A stretch of DNA of 64,000 nt from Candidatus Latescibacterota bacterium. GTDB taxonomy: Bacteria; Latescibacterota; UBA2968; UBA8231. A program made the translations under genes and the position numbers. The stretch covers positions 1,088,001-1,152,000 of the forward strand of contig CBDETK010000013.1 of the NCBI GenBank assembly GCA_965242865.1, in the 5' to 3' direction. Below the pieces are notes generated by a model. That model made no database searches and was not told where the DNA came from. It worked only from the letters and a program-made list of their open reading frames with translations. Shown piece after piece: positions 35,119 through 54,245 of the stretch; position 1 is the stretch's first letter, and each line of letters opens with the position of its first letter.

Positions 35119-36330
35119 TCAAAGCGCAGACACCGGAATTGACAAGGCCGCTTCCGCCAGCGGCAGCGATTGTTCGGCCAAACAGACCACGCCGCCGCTC
35201 CCTACAGGCCGGTTTAATTTTTTCAATGCTTGGAAGTGCCGGACGTGGTTTTTAGTGGGCGAAGCGGTCTTTTTGAACTCCAGCGGATAGATCGCGCCAT
35301 CCTGCAGCACGAGCAGATCAATTTCTTTGCCATCTCGATCCCGATAATAATAGAATGGGGCTAGACGCCCGTTGTGCCAGTAACTCTTCAGCAGTTCGCT
35401 CACGATCCAAGACTCCAAGATGGGGCCGGACATGGCCCCGGCTTCGAGCGTCTCCGGGCTAGCCCACTCGGTCAGGTAGGCGCACAGCCCGGTATCGACA
35501 AAATAGAGCTTGGGGCTTTTCACCAGCCGCTTGGTGAGGTTGGTGTAATACGGCTCCAAGAGATAGACCATTCCAGCAGTCTGTAAGATCGACAGCCATG
35601 TTTTCGCGGTATTGGGCGCGACATCCGCATCGCGCGCCAAGTCCGAAAAGTTGACTATTTGTCCGGTTCGGGCCGCCGCGGCCCTCAGAAAGCGAAGAAA
35701 GGCCAGCTCATCGCCGACTCGGGCGAGGTCGCGAATATCGCGCTGGAGGTACGTTTGCAAGTACGCGCTGTAAAAAAGGCCCCAATCCATTTGCTCGTCC
35801 AGCGCAATGGCGGGGAAATCGCCGCGCCATATAATCCGGTAGAGTTCCTTTAAGCCGAGCGAGCCGCCCGTGCGGACCCTATCGCCCACAGCGTCCGGGA
35901 TCGGCAAAAACGGCCCATCCGCCCGCCCTAGCCGCTCGCGCCGCGAAAGCCCCAAAAGCTGCACAATGCCCACTCGCCCGGCCAAGGATTCGGACGCGCC
36001 TTGCATCAAGTGAAAGTGCTGCGAACCTGTGAGCCAAAACTGACCAGGCGTCCGCTCTCGATCTACGGCCATTTTGATATAGGGCAAAAGCTGCGGCGCG
36101 TATTGGATTTCGTCGATGAGCACCGGCGGCGCGAACCGCTGCATGAACAGGGCGGGGTCTTCGCGGGCCAAGCTCTGGACTAGGGGATCGTCTAAGGTGA
36201 CGTAGGTGCGGTCTGATTGGCTTGCGTGTTTCAACAGGGTCGTCTTGCCGACCTGTCTGGCCCCGCAGACCATGAGAACGGGGAATCGGCAAGACGCAAC
36301 AAAGGCTTCGAGCGTTCGGGAGACGTACAT
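35119..36330 (-). CDS. AAA_14 ATPase with DUF4143 C-terminal domain
   Basis: GARQVGKT, IDEIQ, LTGS, ESLAGR, KSPKLYFVDTGL, YYRDRDGKEIDL, PLEFK. Confidence 0.9.
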   Translation of the reverse strand: MYVSRTLEAFVASCRFPVLMVCGARQVGKTTLLKHASQSDRTYVTLDDPLVQSLAREDPALFMQRFAPPVLIDEIQYAPQLLPYIKMAVDRERTPGQFWLTGSQHFHLMQGASESLAGRVGIVQLLGLSRRERLGRADGPFLPIPDAVGDRVRTGGSLGLKELYRIIWRGDFPAIALDEQMDWGLFYSAYLQTYLQRDIRDLARVGDELAFLRFLRAAAARTGQIVNFSDLARDADVAPNTAKTWLSILQTAGMVYLLEPYYTNLTKRLVKSPKLYFVDTGLCAYLTEWASPETLEAGAMSGPILESWIVSELLKSYWHNGRLAPFYYYRDRDGKEIDLLVLQDGAIYPLEFKKTASPTKNHVRHFQALKKLNRPVGSGGVVCLAEQSLPLAEAALSIPVSAL

Positions 36331-36557: not shown

Positions 36558-36920
36558 TTAATCATGCCGATTCTCCTTTGGAACAAAAAAGGGAGGGCTT
36601 TCGCTCCAGACGATGCGCCCTTTTCGCAGCCAATAGTGGCAGCGGCAGGGCAAGCCGGTTACGTGGACTGAGGGTGACAGTGAAATCTGTCCGTCCACAT
36701 GTTCCGTTATGCTCCACCGTTTGTCAACTTGAGGCGACACATCCAAGTGAACAACTTGTCGGCATGTCCTGCGAGGGCAGACAATAGCTGCATAAAACGG
36801 GTGTTTGCGTCCGCCAATGATGTACACCGTATTTTTGTGGAGATCGTCCGGCAAATCCTCTACCCACTCCGTGCGGTAAGGACGGAAACGCGCCCATATA
36901 TTGAAAATCCACCTAAACAT
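36558..36920 (-). CDS. DUF6527-family protein of a Bub-type ubiquitin-like operon
   Basis: CP..C...W...ISLSPSV...CRCHYWLRKGRIVW pattern; last gene of the Ubl-E2-E1 operon. Confidence 0.75.
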   Translation of the reverse strand: MFRWIFNIWARFRPYRTEWVEDLPDDLHKNTVYIIGGRKHPFYAAIVCPRRTCRQVVHLDVSPQVDKRWSITEHVDGQISLSPSVHVTGLPCRCHYWLRKGRIVWSESPPFFVPKENRHD

Positions 36921-38307
36921 GGCTAGTGTTATTTTTCACGAGTAAGCTCCTGTCGCCTGTTCCCATGTATCGTACCATCAATGGATGTGGCCCTCCCTCG
37001 TCCGCGGCGTTTTCATAGCATCCATGCACTAGGCGAAATCGTTGAGTCGCAAATTCGGCATTGGCGTCAAAGCGATAGGCATGAATGCGGGCCATGAAAT
37101 CGTTAAACGCCATACACGCCGCCTGCATGTTGACAGACATAACCGCCGGTTGTTCCTCGCCGACAGCGGCTAAATAGCCGGCCACGCGCTGTTGTTGGTA
37201 GTACGCCGGGTCCTTTCGCTGCCAATTTTCGGCCGTCACCTGTTCCATAGTGTACGCGCCGCGCGATAGCAGGCTTTCACCTTCTGGGTGAATGTAATGC
37301 GATACGGCATCGGCGGCGGTGATACCACCTTTCCCGTCGGCCTCAAGGTGGACTCCTACGTCAAAATAGGGAATCAGATAAGCACTTGCTAGGCAATCGA
37401 GATGATACCGGCCAAAGGCGGAATCCACGCAGCCGAAGATCACATCGCAATCGACTAAAGCGGCGACGACATCCGGTGAATCCGTCAATCCTTGGTGAGC
37501 ATCTACTTTGGTTCCCAGGCCGATCTTCTGAATAGCTCGTTCAATCGCCAGCACCTTTGGCTGCTGTGTGCGGGCGTCATCTATAGTACTGTTGATGAGG
37601 CGGTTCAGGTTTTTCTCTTCTACTATATCATCGTCCACAATGACCAACTCGCTCACGCAATTACGCATGAGTAGTTCAATGATTACGCTTCCTGTGCCAG
37701 AACAGCCCACAACCCCCACTCGCATAGTGTGCAATAAATCCAACGTGCCCTTGCCGAAGGTTTGCGCTAGCTTTTCTTGGTACGCCGTTTGGCTTCGGGA
37801 TTTGTGGGCCTTCCAGATGTGGATATTATCGCCGACTGCGGAGACCGTTGGCATATCGGCGAACGTTCCATGTGCGTCCACCGTGCGGGCCGCGATCTGG
37901 CCATTCGACAACATAATGGCGGAGCCATTTGGCCGCCCGTCGTCAAACCAATTGCATACAGAAGAAAACAATTCCCGGTCGTTGCGGTCGTCAATTTTTG
38001 AAAACCGGCCACATCCTTTGGGATGGGAATGAATAGTGACTACAGACTGTCCATTCCGATCTATATCGCAGATTTTTTCTGGCGGCAGGCAGTCGCCAAA
38101 AGGCCAAGCGACAAAATCCTCTTTTCTGACCGACAGATGATGTGGCGGATACAAAACATCCGCAACGATGAGGCGGCGATGTCTCTTCCCTGTCCCTTGG
38201 TTGCACAACAAAATGGCGGCGGCCTCCAGCCCGTCTCCGGGGAAAAGGTGGTTTTTAACCGCCTCATATTGACTCGCGGTCATGGTCAGGATAGCGGTTG
38301 TCATCAC
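36913..38307 (-). CDS. JAB peptidase-ThiF/E1 fusion (Bub-type)
   Basis: N-terminal JAB E...HSHP...FSKID; ThiF VGCSGTG, DDDIVEEKNLNR, FGCVD, YFDVG. Confidence 0.85.
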   Translation of the reverse strand: MMTTAILTMTASQYEAVKNHLFPGDGLEAAAILLCNQGTGKRHRRLIVADVLYPPHHLSVRKEDFVAWPFGDCLPPEKICDIDRNGQSVVTIHSHPKGCGRFSKIDDRNDRELFSSVCNWFDDGRPNGSAIMLSNGQIAARTVDAHGTFADMPTVSAVGDNIHIWKAHKSRSQTAYQEKLAQTFGKGTLDLLHTMRVGVVGCSGTGSVIIELLMRNCVSELVIVDDDIVEEKNLNRLINSTIDDARTQQPKVLAIERAIQKIGLGTKVDAHQGLTDSPDVVAALVDCDVIFGCVDSAFGRYHLDCLASAYLIPYFDVGVHLEADGKGGITAADAVSHYIHPEGESLLSRGAYTMEQVTAENWQRKDPAYYQQQRVAGYLAAVGEEQPAVMSVNMQAACMAFNDFMARIHAYRFDANAEFATQRFRLVHGCYENAADEGGPHPLMVRYMGTGDRSLLVKNNTSHV

Positions 38308-38690
38308 CCGACTTCGGCTTTTAGCTGATTTTCTACATACTCAATATGACTGACGATGGAATCGACCCCCGGCTGCCATGAGTAATGACGCGACCAACGC
38401 TGCCAAGTCTGACCAAAATGAATCTCAGAGGCCAGAGCACCTATTGCTGAACTATCTGATTTATCAAGCGGAGGATAAAAGTAAAACATGTCCAACATCG
38501 ATCCGGGATAGCCGCTTGGAATGAGCACCATTAGCGTGGATTTTTCTACCGCATAGCCTTTGGGAATGGGAAAGTCGTCAATGAGTAGGCCATACTTACC
38601 ATTACCCTCGGCGACCTTCTTCCATTTGGACGGATAACTCGCATCCAGATATTCGTTATCCTCCGGCGGCAACTCGTAGGGATTAACCAT
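38304..38690 (-). CDS. Prokaryotic E2/UBC-fold protein (Prok-E2_E-like), cysteine-free
   Basis: IPKGY, IPSGYP..MLDMFYF.P, WQRWSRH; start MVNPY overlaps the Ubl stop. Confidence 0.8.
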   Translation of the reverse strand: MVNPYELPPEDNEYLDASYPSKWKKVAEGNGKYGLLIDDFPIPKGYAVEKSTLMVLIPSGYPGSMLDMFYFYPPLDKSDSSAIGALASEIHFGQTWQRWSRHYSWQPGVDSIVSHIEYVENQLKAEVG

Positions 38691-39408
38691 GGCCTTGCTG
38701 TGCCTGTCGCCGAACGGTCTCAAAGCGTTCAATGCCGGGACGGGATAAATCGACCGCATCGTTGGCCTTGATTCTTTCTCTTTTACCGCCGTGCAGCTTC
38801 TGGTTGAGCGACCATTCGTCATCGCGCTTGTCGGCCAGTACCAAAATACCGGCCCCGGTGATTTCTGCAGAATCCACGGTGTACTTGTCGCCGTCTATGC
38901 GGATGCGGTATTGGTGCCCTTTGGGTGGGCGGCGGTCGTTCTTGCCGCACTCCTCAAGGTCAATGGCGTCGTCCGAGGTGGGCGGGATGACGAAAAACGA
39001 GTCCGCATCTTGGACGACAATCGTCATGTCATCCGCAATTTCCACATCCACACCGCCTTCAATGTCGGCAAATAGACGCCCCTGCGGGAACTTGTCGTCC
39101 CGCTCTTTGAGGGCTTTGCCGGTAGTTTTTGCTTGTGGAAGGGCGAGGTTGCGCGATCCATTGAATTCTGGCCGCACTTCATTGCGCAACGGCGGGTTAT
39201 CCCCGATCGAGCTTTTCCCCACTACAAACCGTTCTCCACCGCGAATAATGAGATGCTCCCCTGCCAAGAGAGGAATATCTATGCCATCTTCGCGGCTCAG
39301 AAAAATTCGTCCCTCGCCGCAATCGGCGATTTCATAGAGCGCGTCAATGGAAACAAGCCCCGCACGGATTGGGGTTTCCTGCCCGTCAATTTGGATTGTT
39401 GGTTTCAC
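38683..39408 (-). CDS. Multi-ubiquitin-domain protein (probably 3 beta-grasp domains)
   Basis: Repeated IQIDG/PEFNG/IRIDG domain starts, TG...L motifs, GIERF; C-terminus QAQQG-HG. Confidence 0.8.
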   Translation of the reverse strand: MKPTIQIDGQETPIRAGLVSIDALYEIADCGEGRIFLSREDGIDIPLLAGEHLIIRGGERFVVGKSSIGDNPPLRNEVRPEFNGSRNLALPQAKTTGKALKERDDKFPQGRLFADIEGGVDVEIADDMTIVVQDADSFFVIPPTSDDAIDLEECGKNDRRPPKGHQYRIRIDGDKYTVDSAEITGAGILVLADKRDDEWSLNQKLHGGKRERIKANDAVDLSRPGIERFETVRRQAQQGHG

Positions 39409-40269: not shown

Positions 40270-40287
40270 TACGTTCTTTCAAGCGGG

Positions 40288-40410
40288 GAGCAGAGCATCG
40301 AGTACGGCGCGGGCCTGTGTGCCGTAGCGGGTGAATAGGTCCCGCTTCTTCACGTTCTCAGCCCGCTCGCGCCGAGTGAGCGGGGCTGGCCATAGACCAC
40401 GTAGCAGATC
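40288..40410 (-). pseudogene. Diverged fragment of the hsdR 3' region (direct repeat of 52083..52206)
   Basis: 123 bp aligns with hsdR with 9 substitutions and a 1-nt deletion; reads ICYVVYGQP/LTRRERAENVKKRDLFTRYGTQARAVLDALL. Confidence 0.85.
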
Positions 40411-40414
40411 CCAA

Positions 40415-40448
40415 ATATTGTAGAAATTGTCAAAGTATCCTACAATAT
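40415..40448 (+). promoter_or_regulatory. Sigma70-like promoter overlapped by a 9-bp inverted repeat
   Basis: TTGTAG(40418)-N17-TACAAT(40441) within ATATTGTAG-N16-CTACAATAT. Confidence 0.45.
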
Positions 40449-40542
40449 ATGGTATTCATCCTCTATAAACTTCGCGGAAGAATCGAGCCATAGAGGGCCG
40501 GAGAGCGCATTAACGACCATGGAGCAAGATTGTGAAGACAAC

Positions 40543-40584
40543 TTTCCGGTTTCCCTTCTGCAATGCGATTATTAGAGAGTAGAA
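40543..40584 (+). promoter_or_regulatory. Bipartite motif TTTCCG-N17-CGATTA, copy 1
   Basis: TTTCCG 40543-48, CGATTA 40566-71, then TTAGAGAGTAGAA; about 62 nt before the sigma-like gene. Confidence 0.65.
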
Positions 40585-40632
40585 GGGGCCTTATGTGCTC
40601 GGAATCCGCCGTTATTTAAGGAAAGGAAGGTA

Positions 40633-41376
40633 ATGGCTTGCCCATTGACTAAACGAAAAGCGACTGGGGACCTATATATCCGTCCTCTTCAAGTAGAGAG
40701 ACAGATTGATGAGGTCCTTTCCCAAGACCCATCGACGCTCCGACGACGCCTCATTGTTGCAGACCCCCAAGCGTCCGACTATCTAAGTTCGGAGTGCCTT
40801 GTCCATCTCGCTCGCTACTACCATAGGCACGGCGACGACTCTAAGACTAATGCGGTACTCTCCGTCTTACTAGGTCGCTGTGAAAAAACCCTATCGGCCA
40901 AAATCCCAGACAATGAACTCCCGACTGCGAGGGAGGTACGAGAGGAAGTGATTGGACAGTTCGGCGAGTTATTTGCTACCGATGGTACGCAAGAGAACCG
41001 CGACGACCTTGACTATTTTGAGTGTCGCTTCAATGGGGCGTTTCGCACTTTTTACATCGATATCGTAAGAAGTGAAACAGCCCCTCTAAAGCGATTAGCC
41101 CCCCTGCCAGACCAAGCCGACGACACCCACAAGGAATTGCAGAGTCCAGAAACAGCAGATAGTGCTTTATTCTGCAAAGAACTCCACGAAGCGATTGATG
41201 CTTTGCCGGATGACATGCGCAAGGCTGTCATCCTTTGCCATATCGAGGGATACAAAATCGAATCTCAGAACCCCAACGAGGCGACAGCAGCGACGATCTG
41301 CAAAGTATCAGGCCGAACCATTCGTAACCGTCTTTTGAGGGCAGCAGGGAAACTTTCTAAATTTAAGGATCAATAA
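40633..41376 (+). CDS. Divergent sigma-70/ECF-like factor (region 4 HTH at C-terminus)
   Basis: LHEAIDALPDDMRKAVILCHIEG...AATICKVSGRTIRNRLLRA region-4 pattern; weak region-2-like F..F..D..R; AAAGGAAGG RBS. Confidence 0.7.
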   Translation: MACPLTKRKATGDLYIRPLQVERQIDEVLSQDPSTLRRRLIVADPQASDYLSSECLVHLARYYHRHGDDSKTNAVLSVLLGRCEKTLSAKIPDNELPTAREVREEVIGQFGELFATDGTQENRDDLDYFECRFNGAFRTFYIDIVRSETAPLKRLAPLPDQADDTHKELQSPETADSALFCKELHEAIDALPDDMRKAVILCHIEGYKIESQNPNEATAATICKVSGRTIRNRLLRAAGKLSKFKDQ

Positions 41377-41387
41377 TTCGGATATTT

Positions 41388-41412
41388 TAAGTCTTTGTTT
41401 ATCAATGACTTA
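41388..41412. promoter_or_regulatory. TAAGTC-N13-GACTTA palindrome containing an IHF consensus
   Basis: TAAGTCTTTGTTTATCAATGACTTA; TATCAATGACTTA fits WATCAANNNNTTR. Confidence 0.5.
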
Positions 41413-41436
41413 ACGTTAAAATACTAAGGAGGAGAC

Positions 41437-42108
41437 ATGTCCGTGACCCCAACCCTCAATGAGTTACCACTACGCGAGGTGTTGTATGAGTTTTCGCTAG
41501 CGAAGACCGTACCTGATGCAGACCTGCTCGACGATTTCGTTCAGCGGTTTCCGCAGTATGCTGACCGCCTCACGGAATTCGCCATCGAACTCGCTATAGA
41601 TGCTCTCCGGCCCGAGCCCGAGATCGACGCGAAGGCGACGGTTGATCTGAACCGTGTGAGTCCCGTTGTCTCGCGGGCAATGAGCCGATACCTGAATCGG
41701 CTACACGCCGTGCGCCAAACAACCGAGCCGACTGTCGACCGCGCTTCGACACCAGAAGTTGCAGATGCTCCAAATCCCTTCGCTAAACTAAACCGATCAG
41801 CGTTTCGGGAGTTAGCAGAGCGGCTCGGCGCGAACACTGTGTTCGTTGCCAAGCTGCGAGACCGCCAAGTCAAGCCGGATACCATCCCAAGCAGTTTTTT
41901 GCGGTACCTTGCAGATGCGCTTGGGACTTCACTTGACTTATTAACTGCCCACTTTGCTGTACCAAGCGCGGAACTTGGGAGCCGACAGTTTTACAAGGCC
42001 GATGACAAGCCTGATGGCAGTCAACGCCAGAGCTTCGTCGAGGCTGTTAAGAGTTCGGCTCTCAACGAGAACCAGCAGCACCAACTTCTTTCTAAGTTTC
42101 TAAACTGA
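41437..42108 (+). CDS. Hypothetical regulator: helical N-domain plus XRE-like HTH (candidate anti-sigma or repressor)
   Basis: DDFVQRFPQYADRL N-terminal helices; ELAERLGANTVFVAKLRD...FLRYLADALG HTH-like; TGATG overlap with the next gene. Confidence 0.55.
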   Translation: MSVTPTLNELPLREVLYEFSLAKTVPDADLLDDFVQRFPQYADRLTEFAIELAIDALRPEPEIDAKATVDLNRVSPVVSRAMSRYLNRLHAVRQTTEPTVDRASTPEVADAPNPFAKLNRSAFRELAERLGANTVFVAKLRDRQVKPDTIPSSFLRYLADALGTSLDLLTAHFAVPSAELGSRQFYKADDKPDGSQRQSFVEAVKSSALNENQQHQLLSKFLN

Positions 42109-45100
42109 TGGACGCATTCGAGCCGATCCGTAAGTCCGCGGCGTGTCTGCACAAGGCTATCGCGGCGCGGACGGACCCTCTAGATACTACGGCACTTATT
42201 ACGGTCGCTGTGGCTCATCTAGATCTTGAACTCGTCTGTCTTGAGCCGGGTGATCCTGCTCTAAAAAATGCCCAGGCGGTGTTCGACGAACAGAGCGGTA
42301 CGATCTGCTGTGAAAAGATAGGGGATGGCACTGACCTTGCCTTGCTTGTGGCTCACGAACTTGGACATGCAGTTGTCCATGCTGGTTCGGCAGTTTGCAA
42401 GACGGATGACATTGATCCAGCTCGTTCGACTGAGACGGTCCCCGTTGGCTTGCAACGTGTCGAGGATTATGGGGCGCGGGAAAGGCGCGAATTACAGGCC
42501 AATGTTTTCGCTCGGGAGCTTCTCTTGCCCCAGAGTCTTGCACGTCGGCTCCATATTGAGGAGACCATGACCGCCTCGGCTATCGCCTCGCGCATGGGCT
42601 TGCCAAAGGCACTCGTCCGACAGCAGATATTTGACGCTCTTCTACTTCCGACGGAAGAGGAAGTAACTCCGGCGGAGACTTCGACCGATACACCGCGTTC
42701 GGATCCCTCGCAGGACCGGGCAGCCGCACATCGTGGTGCCCCGTTCCTGCTTCAGGCCGGGCCGGGAACCGGAAAAACACGGACGCTGGTAAAGCGCGTA
42801 AAATCGCTTCTAGCGGAGGACATTGATCCTTCCTCCCTACTCATCCTGACCTTCTCAAATCGGGCCGCTGGCGAGTTGTTGGAACGGCTTATGGCCATAG
42901 TCCCCGAGGCCGCTGAGCGTATTTGGATCGGAACGTTCCATGCTTTCGGACTTGATCTGATACGACGTCACTATGACCGTCTTGGCCTGTCCCCTAATCC
43001 AGTCCTGTTTGACCGCAGTGATGCGATTGATATGCTGGAGGAGCTCCTCCCAACGCTGCCTCTCGTCCACTACCGCAACTTATGGGATCCGACGATAGTG
43101 CTGCGAGAAGTGCTCCCTGCCATCTCTCGTGCTAAAGATGAGCTCGTAGATCGAAGCCGCTACCGAGAGCTCGCCGAAGCTATGCGAGCGGACGCAGACG
43201 ACAATGACGCTCGCGTGGCAGCCGAGAAGTGCTTGGAGATCGCCGACATTTATGATCTCTACGAAAGTGCCATGAGCGAACGGGATGCTGTTGATTTTGG
43301 CGATCTCATCATGCGGCCGGTATTGCTCTTAGAATCCGATCCAGCACTCAAGCACACTGTTCAGTTGCGGCACCGACACCTTCTAGTTGATGAATATCAG
43401 GACGTAAATCGGGCGAGCGCATGTTTGCTAAAAGCGATTGCTGGTGATGGCAAGCGTCTATGGGTGGTCGGCGACTCGCGTCAATCCATCTACCGCTTTC
43501 GCGGAGCGTCCCCTATCAACATGGCTCGCTTTGGCGACGACTACCCGGGGGCAGTAGTTGACCAACTCTCCGTCAATTACAGATCGACAGACCAGATCGT
43601 CGCCAGTTTCGTCAAGGTAGCTCCCCGGATGGGTGCATCCAAAGGCATGTTGCCACTTGCTCTTGACGCTGACCGAGGTTTGGGACCCGGAAAACCAGAA
43701 ATTCGGTGCTATGACACTCCCGACGACGAAGCTGGAGGTATCGCCGGAAGCATCCAAGAACTCAAAAGGGCGGGGGTTTCTCTCCGCGATCAGGCTGTGC
43801 TTTGTCGCTCGAACCGCCATCTGAATGAAATCGCCACAGCACTTGAAGCACACGGCATTCCTGCACTGCATCTCGGCAGTTTATTTGAGCGTGAGGAAAT
43901 ACGCGATTTGCTAGCACTTCTCAGCCTCGCAGTTGATCGGTTGGGTAATGGTCTCGTGCGGGTGGGAGTAATGCCGCGCTATGATCTCTCGTTGCAAGGC
44001 ATATATACCGCCTTGCACCACCTGCGGGATAGCAAGCAATCGGCCCTTTCGGGTATAGGGACGCTTGCTAAGGCTCAAGGTCTCTCGCCTGACGATTCAT
44101 CGGCATTTGCCCGCCTTGCACAGGATCTATCGGGACTCTCCCCAAGCATTTCCGCATGGGAATTTCTCTCAACGTATTTGCTTGACCACACTAATCTCGT
44201 GTGCGAGATGGCTCAAGCCACTACAGTCACCGACCGCATTCGGAACGTTGCTATTTGGCAATTTCTTAACTTCGCCCGCGAACGGCTCAAGACAGACAAG
44301 GGGTTGCTGATTCAGCGGATGCTGGATCGTATTCGGCAACTCGTACTGCTCGCCGAAGAACGGGATTTGCGCCAAATGCCTGCCGCTGCCCTCCATCTAG
44401 ACGCAGTGCGGCTGATGACCGTTCATGGTAGTAAGGGGCTAGAATTTGAAGCAGTCCATGTCCCTAGACTGACGACTGGAAATTTCCCTTCGTCGTACCG
44501 TGGCGTAAGATGCCCACCACCTATCGGTATGACTGAAGGCGCAGAGAGCTCTTCGGTCTCAAAAGAGGCCAAACAGAAACACAATCACGAGGAAGAGTGC
44601 TTGTTTTTTGTTGCCCTCTCGCGAGCACGAACCCATTTACGCCTTTACTTGGCGCATCGGAACTCTAACGGCAGGAACTGCTCGCCATCGCCTTTCTTGA
44701 ATTGGCTGCCAACGGGGACAATCGACAAAGTTGCCCATCCGGTGATCCTGCCACCGCCAGCCAACATGCACAGCCCAGGGTCTATCCAAGTGAGGCGACC
44801 CACCGAATGGCACGTCACGGACAGTACGCTTATCTCCTACGAGAAATGTCCCCGTCGCTTCTTCTATACCCATGTGTTGGGGCTCGGTGGTGCCCGTAAA
44901 GCGACCGCCTATTCGCAGACTCAGGACTGTCTCTACAAACTCATTCGGTGGGTGGGCGAGCGTCGGCTAACAGCCGAACCTACACTTAGCGAGACTGAAG
45001 ACGCTTTCGATACGATCTGGCATGCACACGGGCCAATCTCCCACAAGTTCGCTGACGAATACCGCCGCCTCGCCTTGCGGTTAATAGGTGTCTTAGTTAA

Positions 45101-45536
45101 TGCCAACACTGGACAGCATTTCCGTGAAGTCAAACCGTTGGTGATTGATTTCTTAAATGGTCGCGTGTCCATAGAGCCAGATGCGATCATCAACTTACCG
45201 GACGGAAAAGTCGCTTTGTGCAAAATCCGCACCGGCGATAAGCGCAACAACGAATATAATCGCCTTGACTACGCACTCTATCAGTTGGCCAGTCAGCAAC
45301 ACTTCGGTAACCATTCAGTGACTCAGGTTCTGTACCTTACAAACACAAACGGGATGTTCAAAGATGTGCAGATCTCGCCGAAAACGCTCAACAATCGGCG
45401 GTGTACGATTGATGGGATGCTCGGTGAGATTGCTAAGGGGAAGTTCCCACCCAAGATCAATGAAATGACATGCCCGCGATGTCCGCACTTTTTCATCTGT
45501 GATGCTATGCCTCGTGGATCTCTGACGCTCCCATAA
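42108..45536 (+). CDS. IrrE/ImmA metallopeptidase + UvrD (SF1A) helicase + C-terminal PD-(D/E)XK-fold Fe-S domain fusion
   Basis: AHELGH and ELQANVFA (IrrE); AGPGTGKT, TFSNRAA, TFH, VDEYQD, GDSRQSIYRFRGA, NYRS, TVHGSKGLEF, VALSRA (UvrD); YEKCPRRF...CPRCPHFFIC. Confidence 0.9.
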   Translation: MDAFEPIRKSAACLHKAIAARTDPLDTTALITVAVAHLDLELVCLEPGDPALKNAQAVFDEQSGTICCEKIGDGTDLALLVAHELGHAVVHAGSAVCKTDDIDPARSTETVPVGLQRVEDYGARERRELQANVFARELLLPQSLARRLHIEETMTASAIASRMGLPKALVRQQIFDALLLPTEEEVTPAETSTDTPRSDPSQDRAAAHRGAPFLLQAGPGTGKTRTLVKRVKSLLAEDIDPSSLLILTFSNRAAGELLERLMAIVPEAAERIWIGTFHAFGLDLIRRHYDRLGLSPNPVLFDRSDAIDMLEELLPTLPLVHYRNLWDPTIVLREVLPAISRAKDELVDRSRYRELAEAMRADADDNDARVAAEKCLEIADIYDLYESAMSERDAVDFGDLIMRPVLLLESDPALKHTVQLRHRHLLVDEYQDVNRASACLLKAIAGDGKRLWVVGDSRQSIYRFRGASPINMARFGDDYPGAVVDQLSVNYRSTDQIVASFVKVAPRMGASKGMLPLALDADRGLGPGKPEIRCYDTPDDEAGGIAGSIQELKRAGVSLRDQAVLCRSNRHLNEIATALEAHGIPALHLGSLFEREEIRDLLALLSLAVDRLGNGLVRVGVMPRYDLSLQGIYTALHHLRDSKQSALSGIGTLAKAQGLSPDDSSAFARLAQDLSGLSPSISAWEFLSTYLLDHTNLVCEMAQATTVTDRIRNVAIWQFLNFARERLKTDKGLLIQRMLDRIRQLVLLAEERDLRQMPAAALHLDAVRLMTVHGSKGLEFEAVHVPRLTTGNFPSSYRGVRCPPPIGMTEGAESSSVSKEAKQKHNHEEECLFFVALSRARTHLRLYLAHRNSNGRNCSPSPFLNWLPTGTIDKVAHPVILPPPANMHSPGSIQVRRPTEWHVTDSTLISYEKCPRRFFYTHVLGLGGARKATAYSQTQDCLYKLIRWVGERRLTAEPTLSETEDAFDTIWHAHGPISHKFADEYRRLALRLIGVLVNANTGQHFREVKPLVIDFLNGRVSIEPDAIINLPDGKVALCKIRTGDKRNNEYNRLDYALYQLASQQHFGNHSVTQVLYLTNTNGMFKDVQISPKTLNNRRCTIDGMLGEIAKGKFPPKINEMTCPRCPHFFICDAMPRGSLTLP

Positions 45537-45551
45537 ATTTTTTGCGACGGC

Positions 45552-45591
45552 TTTCCGTTTTCTTCCGTTCTATCCGATTAATAGAGTAGAA
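45552..45591 (+). promoter_or_regulatory. Bipartite motif TTTCCG-N17-CGATTA, copy 2
   Basis: TTTCCG 45552-57, CGATTA 45575-80, then ATAGAGTAGAA; about 69 nt before the Ubl gene. Confidence 0.65.
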
Positions 45592-45648
45592 AGCAGAGAC
45601 AGGCAATGGAGCCTATATCTAGCTCTAAGGTCAAGGAGGCCTTATATA

Positions 45649-46155
45649 ATGGATCGTATCGATGTGTTTTACCAATGTGAGGGGATCAGCGAGATCGGGC
45701 AGATCGATGTTGACGCTGACGCTACCTTCGCGACGGTCAAATCCGAGCTCGCCGACAAGCACGGCCTCGCCGAGGAAGTGATCATCTCTCTAGAGGATGA
45801 TGACGAACGAATCGACGAAAACAGGCAAGTGAAGGAATTCGCCGACCTGACCGTCATTATGGTCCACCTGAATCGCTGCCGTTGCATCGAAGCCAGTGTG
45901 AACTATAACGGTCGTACTGTCGATCACAGCTTCGGACCGAGCGCGACTATCGCCCGTGTCAAAAAATGGGCGGCTGAGGAGTATGGAATGAGTCCCGAAG
46001 ATGCCGGTGAACATTCCCTGCAAATCGTCGACACTCAAAACAGGCCAGCACCGGGGACTCATATTGGTAGGCTGGTTTGCTGCCCTGATTGCAACTTGGC
46101 CTTCGACCTCGTTGCCGACGAGCGCGTGAACGGGTCGACCGGGAGCACAGCTTGA
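45649..46155 (+). CDS. bilA: Ubiquitin-like protein, two-domain ISG15-like (Bil system)
   Basis: Two [16 protein letters not shown] beta-grasp-like units; ERVNG followed by a 6-aa extension; first gene of the Ubl-E2-JAB-E1 operon; AAGGAGG RBS. Confidence 0.75.
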
Positions 46156-46619
46156 GCCCCCCTGACCAACGGGCATTCGAGGCGGACGTGGCAAAGGCCA
46201 CGTTCCGCCTTGGAGAACGACAAGGGCGTTGGTGCTTGATCTGCATAGATTGGCCCTTCGTCTTGATCTCTGTGACTGCAAAAGACAGACGCGAATATGT
46301 GCTACGCTTCAACTGTGCAGGTTATCCGCAAGACCCGCCCACGGGCGGCCTGTGGGATCGCACCCGGAATGCGATCTTGGAACCCAATTGCTGGCCACAG
46401 GGCCAAGGGGGTCGCGTTTCGGCAGTTTTCCGCTCCGACTGGAAGAGTGGATCTGCTTTGTACTTACCTTGCGACCGTGAAAGCATTGCTGGACACGATG
46501 GCTGGCGAACCGAGATGCCGTCAAAAATCTGGCGTCCGGCTGACGGGATCATCCAATACTTGGAAATCGTTTATGAACTTCTCCATAGCCCAGATTATAC
46601 GCCGCTGCCTTGCACCTAA
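46152..46619 (+). CDS. bilB: E2-like conjugating enzyme
   Basis: [23 protein letters not shown] (candidate catalytic Cys), H.GW; TTGA overlap with the Ubl gene. Confidence 0.75.
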
Positions 46620-47091
46620 GCATGAACTGTCCTGTTCTTGGTTTCTCTGGCGTCGCTTGCTCACCGGCTTACGGGAGCGCGGTCACAGCGAGTCGCGGGA
46701 AAGCGGTGCTTTTCTACTAGGTTACCATAACGGCCAACGTGCCCGCATCGTTGATTTTGTCTTGTATGATGATCTCGATCCGCACTGCCTTGATACCGGC
46801 ATCGTCCGATTCGACGGGCGATATTTCGGAAAACTTTGGGATATTTGCAAAAACCGTGATCTGATTGTCGTGGCCGATGTTCATGTCCATCCGAGGGGAT
46901 CACAGCAAAGTGAGTCGGATCGCACCCATCCTATGATTTCGTGTAAAGGGCACTTGGCACTAATCCTGCCGCGTTTTGCAGCCAATCCGCTCCCAAGGCG
47001 CGAAATTGGTATCTACCGATACCAAGGGGCCAAGCAGTGGCAGAATATTGCGTCCACTGACCGGAGGGCTTTTTTCCATATCGGCCTATAG
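46573..47091 (+). CDS. bilC: JAB/MPN deubiquitinase-like peptidase
   Basis: RESGAFLLG...DVHVHP....QSESD JAMM motif. Confidence 0.8.
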
Positions 47092-47101
47092 GGAATTATC
47101 T

Positions 47102-48466
47102 ATGAACGCTAAACCGAATGCCGACAGCCTGCACCGCTTGGTTAAGTACGCGCTCGATAGCGGAGAGGCCAAGACTCTCGCCGAGGCGGAGAAGCTATTT
47201 CGTGGCTATCGCCTTGCGCTTACCATTCACGGGGCCGAATCTCGAAGTTCACTCAATCAAGTCGCGTTGTTGACGGCGGTTGCTCTTGGCCGCCGTGTAT
47301 TCCTCGGCGGAGTTTCCGTAGAAGGCGACTTAGATGTACCGCTGAAAGTACCGCTACCGCTCCGCTCTAGGCTTCACGAGGCTGTGGGCGATCTCGGTGG
47401 ATCGGTTACGCCTTCTGACGACGAAACGCCGACCATTGCTATTGGTGGCGGCCCTCGCCCACGACAGCCTGGGTTTCACATCCGTACGGCAATCGCCGGA
47501 TGGCGCGGTGGCATCCTTCCGGCGCACTCAGAATTGGTGCCGACCCCTGGACCTACGATTCCGTTAGCGGCTATGCTGTCCGCTGGCCTCGCGGTCAATG
47601 AAGCCTTCCAGTTTGTGGACAGCGGCGGTCCTGCGGTGGGACGACGACCAATAGGATTGTCGCTGTGGCGGCCCGATGCAGACTGGCTGGCATCCGACTT
47701 AGACGGGCCTCAGATTGCCTATCTTCCATCGCGGCTTTGGCTGATCGGGCTCGGGCACCTAGGACAAGCGTATCTTTGGGGGCTTGGGTTACTGCCCTAT
47801 AAGGATCCGGGGAAGCTCTCTCTCGTCCTGCAAGATATAGATAAGATCACGCCATCGACCGAAAGCACATCGATCTTGAGCGGCGCGGGCACGGTGGGCC
47901 AAAAAAAGACCCGTGCTATGGCAGCTTGGGCAGAAAAACGTGGGTTTGCGACAGCGTTGCACGAGCGACTGTTCGATGCCAGTTTCCGCCGCCAAGATAG
48001 AGAACCAACCGTCGCGTTGTGTGGTTTGGATAATGCGCCAGGACGGCAAGCACTTGATCAAGTGGGCTTTGAGTTGATTGTCGAGGCTGGGCTTGGGAGA
48101 GGGCAACAAGACTTCCGTACCATGCGCCTGCACGTACTACCGGGGGCACGTTCGGCGAAGGAGCTTTGGAAACTGGCAGCACCTGCTGAAACAGCTACGG
48201 ATCGCCCCGCCTATCAAGAGATGCTCAAAAGTGGCGAATTGGATCGTTGCGGCGTTACGCTTCTAGCCGGTAAGGCGGTCGGTGCTCCCTTTGTAGGCAC
48301 CGTGGCTGCTACGCTGGTACTGTCTCAAGTGCTACGCTTACTCCACGGCGAGAGCCCCTATCAGCTAATCGATCTTAATCTGCTCTCTGTTGACCATTGC
48401 TCTACCGTTCCTAGTTCCAAGTGCTTTCAGTCTCTCAACCCCGGATACACTGCCGAACTCTATTGA
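47102..48466 (+). CDS. bilD: E1-like activating enzyme (N-terminal inactive domain + ThiF + Cys domain)
   Basis: LIGLGHLG, LQDID, CGLDNAPGR, EAGLG, LDRCG (candidate catalytic Cys), GAPFVG. Confidence 0.78.
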   Translation: MNAKPNADSLHRLVKYALDSGEAKTLAEAEKLFRGYRLALTIHGAESRSSLNQVALLTAVALGRRVFLGGVSVEGDLDVPLKVPLPLRSRLHEAVGDLGGSVTPSDDETPTIAIGGGPRPRQPGFHIRTAIAGWRGGILPAHSELVPTPGPTIPLAAMLSAGLAVNEAFQFVDSGGPAVGRRPIGLSLWRPDADWLASDLDGPQIAYLPSRLWLIGLGHLGQAYLWGLGLLPYKDPGKLSLVLQDIDKITPSTESTSILSGAGTVGQKKTRAMAAWAEKRGFATALHERLFDASFRRQDREPTVALCGLDNAPGRQALDQVGFELIVEAGLGRGQQDFRTMRLHVLPGARSAKELWKLAAPAETATDRPAYQEMLKSGELDRCGVTLLAGKAVGAPFVGTVAATLVLSQVLRLLHGESPYQLIDLNLLSVDHCSTVPSSKCFQSLNPGYTAELY

Positions 48467-48573
48467 GGATTAAAAGATAAGATGCCGAACCTTAATTACA
48501 CCGCGAATAGCTTCCCTTCGAGTTGGGGCCGCTACTCCATGGCTCGCGTTCCATTGAGTAGTAAGACCGTTCT

Positions 48574-51908: not shown

Positions 51909-54245
51909 CTAGGCGGCGGTATCGTAAATGGCCGCTGCGAGCTCCTGCACGGCGGCGATGTACTCGTCTCTGCCGCCAAAGTGCCGAACCAACTCCAGCG
52001 GGGTCCCGAGGTCCGACAGCGGCTGCACACGCAGAACGCCCAGATCTTCAACCGAGGCCAGCCCTTCGTCCGCATACTTATCGAGCAGCGCATCGAGCAC
52101 GGCGCGGGCCGGTGCGCCGTAGCGGGTAAATACATCCCGCTTCTTCACGTTCTCAGCCCGCTCGCGCCGAGTGAGCGGGGGCTGGCCATAGACCACGCGG
52201 CAGATCAGGTCAAAGGCGTCCAAGTCTTGGCCGCCCTGCTCGCGCAACTCCTCAAACAGTACGCCCTGCTCGCGCAACTCCTCGAGCACCTCGGCCTTGC
52301 GGTCCGCCTCAGACCAGCGGCGCAAAAAGGCGTCTAAGGTGGCGTACTCTCGCTGCACGGTCTTGCGCGTGTAGTCGGTCAGGGACTCGGTGATGAGCCG
52401 GCCATCGCGGTCGAGATACTGGACGCGCTCGGCCATGACCTCGACCGCAACCCCGCTGACGACGTACCGCGTCGCGCCCTCCACCGCTGGCCCGTCCCTA
52501 TCTCTGCCATCACCCTCATAGCCATCAACGACATCGGACGCAATGGAATCGCCACTGTCAGGCTCATAAACGACGACCGGCTCGCCGTCAAAGTCCGGGT
52601 CGGCAAACAACTCGGTCGCCTTTTTGAAATCCATGATGGTAAACCAAAACTTGCCCGCGTCCTCGTGAATGCGGGTGCCGCGCCCGATGATCTGCTTGAA
52701 CTCAATAAGCGACTCAATGCGCTGGTCGAGCACGATGAGTTTGCAGGTCCTCACATCTACTCCGGTCGTCAACAGCTTCGAGGTCGTGGCAATGACTGGA
52801 TAACGCCGCTCAGGGTGAATGAAGTCGTCGAGCGCGAGCCGCCCCTCGTCGCTGTCGCCGGTGATGCGAACCACGAACTTCGAGACGTTACTCGCTTCCT
52901 GCGGCAGCCGCTTAGCGACCTCGTTGACTAGGGCCGAACGCATCCGCTCGGCATGGTCGATGGTCTCGCAGAAGACGATGGTTTTGCCGTAGGGATCGGT
53001 CGCCAACAGCTGCGCGACGACCTTCTCGGCGACGCGCCGGGTGCGCTCGTTTAGGACCAGCACCCGGTCCATGTCGCGCTGGTTGTAGATGCGATCTTCG
53101 AGCTCTCGACCGAGGTCATCGGTCATGCCCGTCGGGGGCCGCCACCCCTGCAAGTCCTTGTCGAGATCAACGCGCACGACCTTGAACGGCGCGAGAAAAC
53201 CGTCGTCAATGCCCTGCTTGAGACTGTAGGTGTAGATGGGGTCGCCAAAGTAACGGAGCGTACTGACCTCGGCGGTCTCCCTCGGCGTCGCCGTAAGCCC
53301 GAGTTGGACCGCCGGCTCAAAGTAATCGAGGATTTCCCGCCACGCACTCGCCTCGCGGGCACTGCCCCGGTGGCACTCGTCAATGACCACCAAGTCGAAA
53401 AATTCCCGGCTGAACTGCCGGTACACATCCTGCTCCTCCTCGTTGCCGCTGACGGCTTGGTAGAGCGCGATGTAAATCTCGTAACTCGGGTCCAAGTCGC
53501 GGTTGCGGACCTTGGTCATCACCGCGCCAAAAGGCTTGAAGTCGTTGGTGGCGGTCTGGTCCGCGAGGATGTTGCGGTCCACGAGGAACAGCACCCGCTT
53601 GACCTTCCCGGCCTTCCACAGCCGCCATATAATCTGAAAGACGGTGAAGGTCTTGCCCGTGCCGGTCGCCATGACCATCAACACCCGGCGCTGTCCCCGC
53701 GCAATGGCTTCGACCGCCCGCTGAATGGCAACCCGCTGATAGTACCGAAGCTCCTTACCGGCTAAATCTGCGTAGTAAGGCTGCCGGGCGAGCTTATCGG
53801 ATGCTTCGTCGAGTCCCTTCCAAGCCCGGTATCGCCGCCACAACTCGTCCGGCGACGGGAACTCGTCCAGCCCGATTTGCTTTTCTTTGGAGGACGACTG
53901 GCCGGTGCGGTCGTGGAACAGGAAGGCGTCGCCATTGGACGAGAAAACAAACGGCACGTCGAGGGCTGCAGCATAGCCAAGTGCCTGCTGCATCCCACCG
54001 CCGACCGGGTGGCTGTTGTCCTTGGCTTCAACTACGGCGAGCGGAAGGTTTGGCTGGCAGAACAGCAAATAGTCAGCGCGCTTCTTGTTGCCGCGCACGC
54101 CCAGCTTGCCCCGAACAATGACCTGCCCAGCAGTAAAGGTGTACTCGCGGCGGACCTGCGTCCGCTGATCCCACCCGGCCCGGACGATCGCTGGAGTGAT
54201 AAAGGCATCGCATATCTCCGCTTCGTTCAGGAGCTTCTTGTCCAT
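51909..54245 (-). CDS. hsdR: Type I R-M restriction subunit (EcoAI/EcoEI-like)
   Basis: RADY...VVEAK nuclease; RYYQ, MATGTGKT, DECHRG, TATP, QIIGRGTR; C-terminal PLTRRERA. Confidence 0.95.
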   Translation of the reverse strand: MDKKLLNEAEICDAFITPAIVRAGWDQRTQVRREYTFTAGQVIVRGKLGVRGNKKRADYLLFCQPNLPLAVVEAKDNSHPVGGGMQQALGYAAALDVPFVFSSNGDAFLFHDRTGQSSSKEKQIGLDEFPSPDELWRRYRAWKGLDEASDKLARQPYYADLAGKELRYYQRVAIQRAVEAIARGQRRVLMVMATGTGKTFTVFQIIWRLWKAGKVKRVLFLVDRNILADQTATNDFKPFGAVMTKVRNRDLDPSYEIYIALYQAVSGNEEEQDVYRQFSREFFDLVVIDECHRGSAREASAWREILDYFEPAVQLGLTATPRETAEVSTLRYFGDPIYTYSLKQGIDDGFLAPFKVVRVDLDKDLQGWRPPTGMTDDLGRELEDRIYNQRDMDRVLVLNERTRRVAEKVVAQLLATDPYGKTIVFCETIDHAERMRSALVNEVAKRLPQEASNVSKFVVRITGDSDEGRLALDDFIHPERRYPVIATTSKLLTTGVDVRTCKLIVLDQRIESLIEFKQIIGRGTRIHEDAGKFWFTIMDFKKATELFADPDFDGEPVVVYEPDSGDSIASDVVDGYEGDGRDRDGPAVEGATRYVVSGVAVEVMAERVQYLDRDGRLITESLTDYTRKTVQREYATLDAFLRRWSEADRKAEVLEELREQGVLFEELREQGGQDLDAFDLICRVVYGQPPLTRRERAENVKKRDVFTRYGAPARAVLDALLDKYADEGLASVEDLGVLRVQPLSDLGTPLELVRHFGGRDEYIAAVQELAAAIYDTAA

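Follow-up and report, generated by a model that had tools for sequence, protein, structure and literature searches.

In a 64,000-nucleotide stretch of DNA from a Candidatus Latescibacterota bacterium (the window), a Bil operon, a ubiquitin-like anti-phage system, is preceded by three co-oriented genes encoding an ECF-like sigma factor, a 223-amino-acid partner protein and a 1142-amino-acid peptidase-helicase fusion. The trio and the operon probably constitute one mobile cassette, in which the trio serves as the built-in regulator of the operon. The explanation that we favour, with some confidence, is that a sigma switch, an anti-sigma partner and a DNA-sensing peptidase-helicase together drive bilABCD. 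Such a module would appear to be a DNA-sensing on-switch of bacterial immunity that had not been described before; our search of the literature found no description of a module of sigma factor, partner and peptidase-helicase.

According to the proposed mechanism the sigma factor would direct RNA polymerase to two private promoters of the form TTTCCG-N17-CGAT, one for its own operon and one for bilA. At rest, the partner would grip the sigma-2 domain through its own N-terminal domain and so fulfil the anti-sigma role. The 1142-residue sensor, built of an SF1 helicase and a Cas4/AddB-like Fe-S domain that appears to have lost its nuclease residues, may engage abnormal DNA (single-stranded DNA or free ends, derived from phage or from damage), and this engagement would activate the fused M78 peptidase to cut the 223-residue protein. 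The sigma factor set free could then amplify its own operon and turn on bilABCD. DNA sensing by the helicase, cleavage by the peptidase with its target, and de-repression are proposed by analogy with CapH/CapP, ImmR/ImmA and DdrO/IrrE.

The cassette occupies about 8 kb of the plus strand (40536-48470) and comprises, in this order, a promoter, the genes for sigma factor, partner and peptidase-helicase, a second promoter and bilABCD. All the genes named in the first-pass annotation are present and co-oriented on that strand, but the start it had placed at 40415 has to be moved: blastn homology to two other loci, L003 and L004, begins at 40536 and stops at 48470-48506. L003 carries the same cassette in a different genomic context (blastn). 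The window itself is a defence island, in which a type I restriction-modification (R-M) system and a second Bub operon are also located.

The gene order of a Bil operon (Ubl, E2, JAB deubiquitinase, E1) is found at 45649-48466 according to PADLOC. The ubiquitin-like protein BilA (45649..46155, plus strand) was matched over its full length (E 1.2e-51). The longest open reading frames of the other three genes, all on the same strand, overlap their neighbours, and the aligned parts start further downstream: E2-like bilB spans 46089..46619 (aligned from about 46158; PADLOC E 4.9e-60, Pfam DUF7665 E 2e-67), the JAB deubiquitinase-like bilC 46297..47091 (from about 46597; E 4.1e-66) and E1-like bilD 46976..48466 (from about 47111; E 8.9e-170). 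A conserved stem-loop was detected by RNAalifold in the predicted 5' leader of bilA (45590..45626, plus strand). Eight of its 11 pairs show compensatory changes, 89% of cells are paired compared with 33-59% when the structure is slid, and 29 cells are changed on both sides compared with 9.4 in shuffles, none of 500 shuffles reaching as high.

The bipartite motif CTTTCCG(G/T)-N16-CGATTA is present upstream of both the sigma gene and bilA. The predicted promoter P_sig (40542..40571, plus strand) consists of a -35-like element CTTTCCGG (40542-40549), a 16-nt spacer and a -10-like CGATTA (40566-40571); in P_bilA (45551..45580, plus strand) the corresponding elements are CTTTCCGT (45551-45558), again 16 nt, and CGATTA (45575-45580). 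When both strands of the genome (5,997,474 bases) were scanned with a weight matrix derived from 47 unique sites, all belonging to other loci and none to the window, P_bilA ranked first (39.5 bits) and P_sig second (34.5 bits, or 31.3 with the core matrix), whereas the third site scored 21.3 bits and all others at most 16.4. The strict pattern was matched 189 times in 81 sequences (80 loci and the window), as against 10-24 times in 20 shuffles, and 97 of these matches fall upstream of a sigma or Ubl gene. It lies 5' of the sigma gene in 28 of 40 Bil-linked loci. Ahead of the cargo, the motif occurs in 28/40 Bil, 15/15 Bub I and 11/11 Bub II loci from genomes and in 52 of the 53 Bub II loci from metagenomes; the 12 Bil-linked loci without the strict motif before the cargo have variants or are broken. 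The variants follow the clades, with TTTCCGG..CGAT(C/T)A for Bil, CCTTTCCGGT..GCGATTGAC for Bub I and TTACCGGTC..CGATTG for Bub II. A scan for the sigma-70 consensus returned no promoter upstream of either the sigma gene or bilA. The promoter-like motif that had been noticed in front of the first gene and the Ubl is therefore real and far beyond chance, given its genome ranks and its conservation across loci.

The first gene of the cassette (40633..41376, plus strand) encodes a protein of 247 amino acids, extended by about 50 residues at its N terminus. Its region 4 helix-turn-helix is recognized by Pfam (Sigma70_r4_2, 27.7 bits, cutoff 25.7), and a profile search of the PDB returned ECF sigma factors (5uxx, E 3.7e-8), the alignments to 5uxx and 2o8x covering region 4. 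Region 2 went unrecognized by sequence models, with no Pfam Sigma70_r2 match returned, and all 17 NCBIfam matches, ECF models included, stayed under their cutoffs (TIGR02937, 22.1 against 42.9), which distinguishes the protein from known ECF sigma factors. The AlphaFold2 (AF2) model (mean pLDDT 83.5) has the two-domain sigma-2 plus sigma-4 fold, and its top Foldseek matches were all ECF sigma factors (1or7, 8z6g, 6in7 and 5zx2 among them), with about 170-205 aligned columns, probability 1.00 and E-values down to 2.7e-4; the TM-scores of 0.21-0.39 are low, as expected for two domains joined by a flexible linker. In silico the protein also displays ECF-type traits, namely its own -35/-10 motif, putative autoregulation and a predicted co-transcribed inhibitor. 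The sigma fold attributed to it earlier is thus borne out by PDB profiles and Foldseek, and the models point to a divergent ECF-type sigma factor.

The partner gene (41437..42108, plus strand) ends in a stop codon overlapping the start of the fusion gene by one base. Its product belongs to no family in Pfam, PADLOC, NCBIfam or PHROG, the best match in the PDB profile search was an unrelated protein at E 0.16, and Foldseek with the AF2 model (mean pLDDT 83.5) gave no match with an E-value of at most 1, so that no likeness to a known anti-sigma factor was seen by sequence or fold. DdvA was rejected as a fold relative (8rot, E 4.8, probability 0.04, a chance-level match). From the family alignment and the models, the protein appears to comprise an N-terminal helical domain (about residues 10-96), a linker, a weakly XRE-like helical domain (about 118-175) and a C-terminal linear motif of invariant K191, P192 and F200 in a poorly ordered segment. 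The complex of sigma factor and partner, whose modelling had been suggested beforehand, was predicted from unpaired alignments with a score of 0.81 (best control 0.00), above a pass mark that 58 out of 80 solved complexes attained, as did 2 out of 110 mismatched pairs, although part of this score could stem from memorization, since sigma/anti-sigma complexes are present in the PDB. The runs share at least 66% of their contacts, the pLDDT of the partner is at least 73, and in the predicted interface residues 10-96 of the partner meet residues 37-146, 199 and 237 of the sigma factor; the conserved N-terminal extension of the sigma factor contacts the partner in the model.

The first-pass annotation had called the partner an HTH protein; its presence is confirmed, but the HTH label is weak, all matches behind it being sub-threshold. 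Taken at face value these would suit a CapH/CapP-like arrangement, in which the partner is an XRE-type repressor of the cassette promoters, cleaved by the M78 peptidase after DNA damage, and the sigma-like protein activates constitutively, without being held by the partner. The C-terminal helical domain shows local similarity to XRE, 434-repressor, ClgR and YdaS folds (Foldseek probability 0.3-0.6, E above 1), Pfam HTH models match below threshold (for example Phage_CI_repr, E 0.13), an Atlas lead connects the partner to a cluster with HTH_31 in 54% of its members, and CapH with CapP has been reported beside 25 of 162 Bil operons (PMC10557695) and 168 of 544 Bub operons (PMC11601596). We consider this arrangement unlikely, since the high-confidence predicted interface of the partner is with the sigma-2 domain, HTH families stayed below threshold in all 30 partner members scanned (HTH_3, E 0.18, in 1/30), a non-systematic look beside the promoters revealed no conserved palindromic operator, and the genes are co-directional with their cargo, whereas capH and capP are described as usually divergent (PMC10557695).

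The third gene (42108..45536, plus strand) encodes the 1142-residue fusion. Residues 1-190, approximately, form an M78 (ImmA/IrrE-type) peptidase (Pfam Peptidase_M78, 24.8 bits, cutoff 22; PHROG metallo-protease over residues 75-170, 4.5e-7) with HELGH at residues 83-87. They are followed by an SF1 helicase of the UvrD/PcrA type at about 200-870 (Pfam UvrD-helicase, E 3e-62, with UvrD_C; NCBIfam also contributed to the assignment) and by a PD-(D/E)XK/Cas4-like domain with four cysteines at about 900-1142 (Pfam PDDEXK_1, E 3.6e-8, residues 906-1132). Among 59 full-length relatives HExxH and DE(Y/F)QD are present in all 59 and Walker A in 58, which upholds the earlier description of an IrrE-UvrD fusion with an intact HExxH. 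The cysteine cluster is also kept (C914 and CxxCxxxxxC). Where we take the (D/E)xK catalytic motif of the nuclease-like domain to lie, the family reads (R/K)-x-(R/K)-T-G, and the upstream position is a variable Asp/Asn/Ser; this register is taken from the family alignment, and no solved homologue aligned there that could confirm it. The nuclease catalytic positions thus appear degenerate, and the apparent loss of (D/E)xK speaks for a sensor rather than an effector that degrades DNA. Assignment to Gabija (GajA with GajB) was rejected: a GajA-type partner is absent, and the sigma-like and 223-residue proteins match none of the PADLOC families.

The pairing of peptidase and substrate belongs to the proposed part of the mechanism. 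It is conceivable, if quite unlikely, that the partner is never cleaved and that the sigma factor is released by ATP-driven remodelling or partner switching, or that the peptidase cuts itself, the sigma extension or a phage protein; the conserved ATPase motifs of the helicase and the extension touching the partner in the model are compatible with this. In all characterized M78 pairs named in the literature consulted (CapP/CapH, IrrE/DdrO), however, the peptidase is reported to cut the adjacent small regulator, and the segment with K191, P192 and F200 could plausibly serve for docking or cleavage.

The complete trio was detected in 72 of the 81 genomic loci and in 75 of the 80 metagenomic ones. 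Cargo was counted where at least 1.5 kb of downstream sequence was available (72 genomic and 51 metagenomic loci). In 65 of the 72 genomic loci it was a Bil or Bub operon (Bil in 38, Bub I in 15, Bub II in 11 and a partial Bub in one), while L068 carries a variant Ubl set with Multi_ubiq and ThiF and L076 a DUF1508/YegP-like gene; Bub II was the cargo in 50 of the 51 metagenomic loci. The trio is accordingly linked to Bil operons elsewhere, as had been anticipated, but not specifically, since it also precedes Bub I, Bub II and one YegP-like gene. Conversely, Bil operons usually occur without the sigma-partner-helicase module; four genes only were reported for 135 of 162 of them (PMC10557695). 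In the helicase tree the 34 Bil-linked rows form one clade (support 100) and the cargo labels need 5 changes compared with a shuffled mean of 23.0. Much of the co-occurrence reflects inheritance of a shared cassette, because the independent events on the tree are few (about 3-5). L052 and L056 lack the helicase gene but retain sigma, partner and Bub, and in several loci the helicase is truncated.

The trio might also be a helicase-based defence or repair system in its own right, which only happens to travel beside Ubl operons in defence islands. The helicase matches PADLOC GajB models strongly (E 8e-72), the window is such an island, and cargo was not found in 5 of the 72 genomic loci. All five, however, have truncated or missing trio genes, one private motif precedes both trio and cargo, the trio and the type of cargo have diversified together, and the nuclease positions look degenerate; we regard independence as very improbable and a built-in regulator as the better reading.

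Among known systems, CapH (an HTH repressor) and CapP (an ssDNA-activated M78 peptidase) are described upstream of CBASS, Bil and Bub operons (PMC10557695, PMC11601596). As there, an M78 HExxH peptidase and a small regulator are encoded side by side immediately 5' of an immune operon, which is expected to be turned on after DNA damage or infection. In the present cassette, by contrast, a complete SF1 helicase and a Cas4-like Fe-S domain follow the peptidase in one polypeptide, the small partner matches no XRE family and is a predicted sigma binder, and the proposed output is a private sigma factor and promoter instead of relief of repression. The fusion resembles AddA/RecB-type helicase-nucleases and Cas4 in that a UvrD-type SF1 motor precedes a domain of PD-(D/E)XK fold containing a four-Cys cluster, and differs in its N-terminal peptidase, its apparently altered catalytic positions and the lack of a partner subunit. 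The ECF factors sigmaE, AlgU and SigW are among the best structural matches of the 247-residue protein (Foldseek), and the sigmaE-RseA, AlgU-MucA and SigW-RsiW pairs share with it the two-domain fold, autoregulation through a promoter whose -10 contains CG, an inhibitor from the same transcript that is predicted to hold sigma-2 and sigma-4, and a proposed proteolytic release. The partner described here is, however, cytoplasmic, with no membrane segment seen, an M78-helicase fusion takes the place of the site-1/site-2 membrane proteases, and the proposed signal is intracellular DNA, not envelope stress. In Myxococcus xanthus a dedicated ECF sigma factor, DdvS, turns on the anti-phage systems of a CBASS/CRISPR island under the control of DdvA; the latter is a large transmembrane anti-sigma factor, and no helicase-protease is reported to be involved (PMC11506125). 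CapK and CapS, an ssDNA-activated kinase and a STAS-wHTH repressor, resemble the trio in their upstream position, in their cargo (mostly Bub, also Bil and YegP) and in often lying beside R-M systems, but are described as unrelated proteins acting by repressor phosphorylation, with no sigma factor (PMC13373217). The module described here joins features of the protease-gated and the sigma/anti-sigma regulators of immunity.

The seven genes of the cassette lie on the + strand between 40633 and 48466 and, according to the ORF calls in the window, are separated by short or overlapping junctions. They comprise a sigma-like gene (247 aa, 40633-41376), a partner gene (223 aa, 41437-42108) and a gene for a 1142-aa fusion protein (42108-45536), collectively called the trio, followed by bilABCD (45649-48466), whose products are recognized as BilA-BilD by PADLOC with E values of 1e-51 to 9e-170. 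Nucleotide homology to the closest relatives spans 40536 to approximately 48470, beginning at the first promoter and ending at the stop codon of bilD, and the same unit was found in a different genomic context in the related locus L003. The cassette is embedded in an island of low GC content (52-56% vs about 63% on both flanks), in which operons for type I restriction-modification and for a second ubiquitin-like system are also found. A truncated, GC-rich HsdR fragment (40270-40410, minus strand), which corresponds to the C-terminal EcoEI_R_C part, resembles the intact hsdR at 51909-54245, so the cassette sits within a rearranged type I R-M locus; the related loci L002 and L004 share its hsdS/hsdM neighbours (81-89% identity). 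The left edge of the island is occupied by a DUF4143/AAA_14 ATPase gene (35119-36330, minus strand). An inverted repeat, ATTGTAG-N16-CTACAAT, is located at 40417-40446, where the first-pass annotation had begun the region, and outside the conserved part starting at 40536. A sigma-70 promoter spotted by eye at 40417-40452 was rejected, as the consensus scan was silent and the site lies beyond the conserved cassette. Upstream genes vary among the related loci: in L002 (8471-9726, minus strand) a 123-aa ORF with the look of an XRE HTH protein and a 295-aa ORF, by eye similar to a CapH/CapP-type pair, immediately precede the cassette in divergent orientation, and in L074 (7966-9938) an AbiEii toxin and a DUF6088 protein are encoded just upstream of the trio.

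The 247-aa protein contains a Pfam sigma-70 region 4 domain scoring just above the threshold. A search of PDB with the family profile returned ECF sigma factors (5uxx at 3.7e-8), with SigH and sigmaE aligned over late sigma-2 to sigma-4, and the leading Foldseek matches of its AlphaFold model (mean pLDDT 83.5) were sigmaE, AlgU, SigH, SigL, SigW and CnrH, with 170-205 aligned columns and a probability of 1.00 at low TM-scores, consistent with two domains joined by a disordered linker. Region 2 was not detected by the sequence models, which counts against the regulatory model set out below, and the curated ECF models match the protein only below their cutoffs. Taken together, the profile and fold matches and the sub-cutoff curated models indicate that the protein is a divergent ECF-like sigma, extended at its N terminus by about 50 residues, in keeping with the sigma fold proposed for it in the first-pass annotation. 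Its family is small (84 clusters) and mostly unnamed.

A promoter-like motif shared by the first gene of the cassette and the Ubl gene had also been noticed in the first pass, and it proved to be real. P_sig (CTTTCCGG-N16-CGATTA) is placed 62 nt before the sigma start and P_bilA (CTTTCCGT-N16-CGATTA) 69 nt before bilA, in a layout resembling what we take to be that of ECF-type promoters. The bipartite element is kept at the same two places in the 80 related loci drawn from the genome collection, while the intergenic sequence around it diverges freely. The strict pattern (TT[TA]CCG, 15-18 nt, CGAT) gave 189 matches in 81 sequences (the 80 loci and the window) vs 10-24 in 20 shuffles; of these, 38 precede the sigma gene and 59 the Ubl gene. 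When both strands of the whole 6.0-Mb genome were scored with a weight matrix derived from 47 unique Bil-clade sites, the window excluded, the two sites of the window ranked first and second with 39.5 and 34.5 bits, the third match reaching 21.3 bits and all others at most 16.4. Judged by this gap in scores, the regulon in this genome appears to be limited to just two promoters, P_sig and P_bilA. The sigma-70 consensus scan reported nothing upstream of the sigma gene or bilA. Of five sequencing runs listed as containing this stretch, none is from RNA. The predicted bilA leader opens with a conserved nested stem-loop (45590-45626) with compensatory changes in 8/11 pairs; its controls are flattering, because one and the same alignment also yielded the structure.

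The second ubiquitin-like system, a Type I Bub-like operon, is encoded on the minus strand immediately to the left of the cassette (36558-39408) and consists of Multi_ubiq (38683-39408), Prok-E2_E (38304-38822), JAB-ThiF (36913-38307) and DUF6527 (36558-36920). The 140-nt overlap of its Multi_ubiq and Prok-E2_E ORFs could reflect either a frameshifted BubAB fusion or two genes. Membership of this operon in the regulon was rejected, since the motif is absent upstream and the best minus-strand score is -2.2.

Among the genomic loci the strict motif precedes the cargo, i.e. the operon downstream of the trio, in 28/40 loci with Bil and in all loci with the other Ubl operon types, Bub I (15/15) and Bub II (11/11); the same holds for 52/53 metagenomic Bub II loci. 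An additional copy is located within the sigma coding sequence, about 570 nt in, where the codons for (A/L)-(F/Y)-R ... A-I-(D/E) have wobble bases fitting the promoter consensus. It is present in 14/15 Bub I, 11/11 Bub II and 8/40 Bil genomic loci and in 49/53 metagenomic Bub II loci (L047-L081 and L088-L167; also L008, L009, L011, L012, L014, L016, L020, L022, L024 and L046), and is absent from the sigma gene of the window. Transcription of the partner and helicase genes would be driven by this copy. All 15 loci of the Bub I clade lack the motif upstream of the sigma gene. The 3.4 kb or so immediately preceding the sigma gene in this clade (L047-L063 group) encode an AAA ATPase resembling IetA (PADLOC E value 5e-82) and a subtilase resembling IetS (8e-46). 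These genes end about 55 nt short of the sigma start.

Searches of Pfam, PADLOC, NCBIfam and PHROGs assigned the 223-aa partner to no family. In its model (mean pLDDT 83.5) a helical domain at the N terminus is followed by a linker of low confidence and a domain of five helices; the conserved C-terminal motif, with K191, P192 and F200 invariant or nearly so, falls in a poorly ordered segment. Its designation as an HTH protein in the first-pass annotation is weakly supported: hints come from sub-threshold Pfam HTH hits in single members, an Atlas lead and local XRE-type matches of the model (E >1), but there is neither a known family nor a significant match in the fold search. The sigma:partner complex was predicted with a median score of 0.81, the best control giving 0.00, from unpaired alignments and at a time when solved sigma/anti-sigma complexes already exist; the mark applied is reached by 58/80 solved complexes vs 2/110 mismatched pairs. 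At least 66% of contacts agree between runs, the partner pLDDT is at least 73, and the predicted interface joins partner residues 10-96 with sigma residues 37-146 and two sigma-4 residues. The prediction supports binding of sigma by the partner, as the first pass had supposed, and the lack of similarity of the partner to known anti-sigma factors counts against the regulatory model.

In the fusion protein an M78 (ImmA/IrrE-type) peptidase precedes a complete SF1 helicase of the UvrD/PcrA type, which is followed by a domain with the PD-(D/E)XK fold. Among 59 full-length relatives HExxH is retained in 59/59, Walker A in 58/59 and DE(Y/F)QD in 59/59; the Cys cluster is likewise conserved. The positions at which a nuclease would presumably carry (D/E)xK, in the register of the family alignment, read (R/K)-x-(R/K)-T-G in these relatives, and the upstream Asp is variable. 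Single-sequence searches of PDB with the nuclease-like and peptidase domains gave chance-level matches only, and the profile of the nuclease domain found nothing significant there (Cas4 4r5q, E 1.3).

The co-occurrence of the trio with Ubl operons, anticipated in the first pass, was found well beyond this genome. The three genes were detected together in 72/81 genomic loci (the 80 and the window). The cargo was counted in the 72 genomic loci whose sequence extends 1.5 kb or more beyond the trio: Bil in 38, Bub type I in 15, Bub type II in 11, and a partial Bub set, a variant Multi_ubiq+ThiF set (L068) and a DUF1508/YegP-like gene (L076) in one each. Nothing recognizable follows in the remaining five, all of which have truncated or missing trio genes. 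The YegP-like gene (L076:14855-15058) encodes 67 aa, follows the trio and the motif, and scores 29.3 bits vs a cutoff of 22. The trio is thus not confined to Bil, the operon that the first pass had it control, and is also found ahead of Bub I, Bub II and one YegP-like gene. A metagenome scan seeded with sigma sequences of the divergent clade added 80 loci, with the trio in 75/80 and Bub II in 50/51 of those with room downstream; new cargo types were sought with these queries and Bub II was the only cargo returned. In the helicase tree (FastTree, 59 rows) all 34/34 Bil-linked rows form one clade with support of 100, Bub I and Bub II occupy the other two clades, and the cargo label changes 5 times vs 23.0 in shuffles. 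Judged from these clades and the few label changes, the association of trio and cargo is old and stable, yet few independent events stand behind it. Three loci (L052, L056 and L049) have kept sigma, partner and Bub and have wholly or mostly lost the helicase-peptidase gene; in L049 a gene for a 1285-aa AAA/PRTase-CE protein comes next.

Relatives were detected in 155 stretches across genomes of 185,579 species and in 288 metagenomic stretches, the phyla including Latescibacterota, Pseudomonadota, Acidobacteriota, Myxococcota, Planctomycetota and others. Of the 70 plasmid records that carry the cassette, 58 are mobilizable or conjugative; an annotated Rhizobium plasmid carries the trio followed by Bil-sized genes, and an Acinetobacter plasmid the trio followed by multiubiquitin, ThiF and DUF6527, as does, judged by gene size, a Leptolyngbya plasmid. 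It is therefore a widespread cassette, mobile between phyla. None of 40 pattern matches in viral contigs was confirmed as a relative, and the INPHARED phage collection gave no match. BilD occurs in 5/168 genomes of the window's phylum and in 1/400 scored genomes of a sampled class, that one being the centre genome, a rarity that makes the share of Bil operons with the trio not estimable from genome sampling.

The model most likely to account for these data is that of the first-pass annotation in a refined form. The N-terminal domain of the 223-aa protein would hold a private ECF-like sigma; the helicase-plus-Fe-S module of the fusion would read the state of DNA and activate its own M78 peptidase; the peptidase would cut the partner, and the freed sigma would transcribe its own operon and bilABCD. 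Holding of sigma and sigma-driven transcription have in-silico support from the predicted complex and the motif, while DNA sensing and partner cleavage are inferred by analogy with CapH/CapP and IrrE/DdrO. Further points against the model are the few independent events behind the association, the loci L052 and L056 with sigma, partner and Bub and no helicase, and the occurrence of most Bil operons without the module (135/162 are four-gene operons according to PMC10557695).

How costly immune systems are kept inactive in bacteria until the need arises is only partly understood. The cassette offers a testable handle on the signal inducing Bil and Bub, and a compact promoter/sigma pair, apparently orthogonal to the host sigma-70, of interest for synthetic biology; the coupling of an M78 protease to a DNA motor powered by ATP could account for the way in which these proteases read the state of DNA. 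The known regulators of Bil and Bub operons in the available text of three papers are CapW/BrxR, CapH+CapP and CapK+CapS (PMC10557695, PMC11601596, PMC13373217); in that text 'helicase' has 0 occurrences and 'sigma' appears only in anti-sigma analogies or as a reagent supplier. No account of the trio turned up in full-text searches of the literature; Table S1 of PMC11601596 and Datasets EV1 and EV2 of PMC13373217, supplements outside this scope, may list such neighbours. According to the CapK+CapS paper (PMC13373217), protection against phage by Bub operons had yet to be demonstrated.

We regard it as slightly less than an even chance that the trio is a fourth, mechanistically distinct class of immune-operon regulators beside these three families. 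No earlier class would have combined, in one fusion protein, a cytoplasmic motor that tracks along DNA (a helicase like RecB/AddA whose Fe-S nuclease domain is disarmed) and an ImmA/IrrE protease directed at a soluble anti-sigma, which it destroys, linking the sensing of foreign or broken DNA through a private sigma programme to Ubl conjugation; in the Bub-linked clades the motif copy inside the sigma gene would make anti-sigma and sensor sigma-inducible, forming a negative-feedback, re-arming loop. The cassette would join two known kinds of system, protease-gated immune regulators and ECF sigma/anti-sigma switches. Its cargo range matches that of CapK+CapS (Bub, Bil and YegP) in PMC13373217, which argues by analogy for a role as regulator and against one as partner in Ubl chemistry. 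As far as the accessible text of the three papers goes, the proposed logic of the trio differs from that of CapW/BrxR, CapH+CapP and CapK+CapS in being positive control, exerted by a private sigma that would be freed by a helicase-coupled protease.
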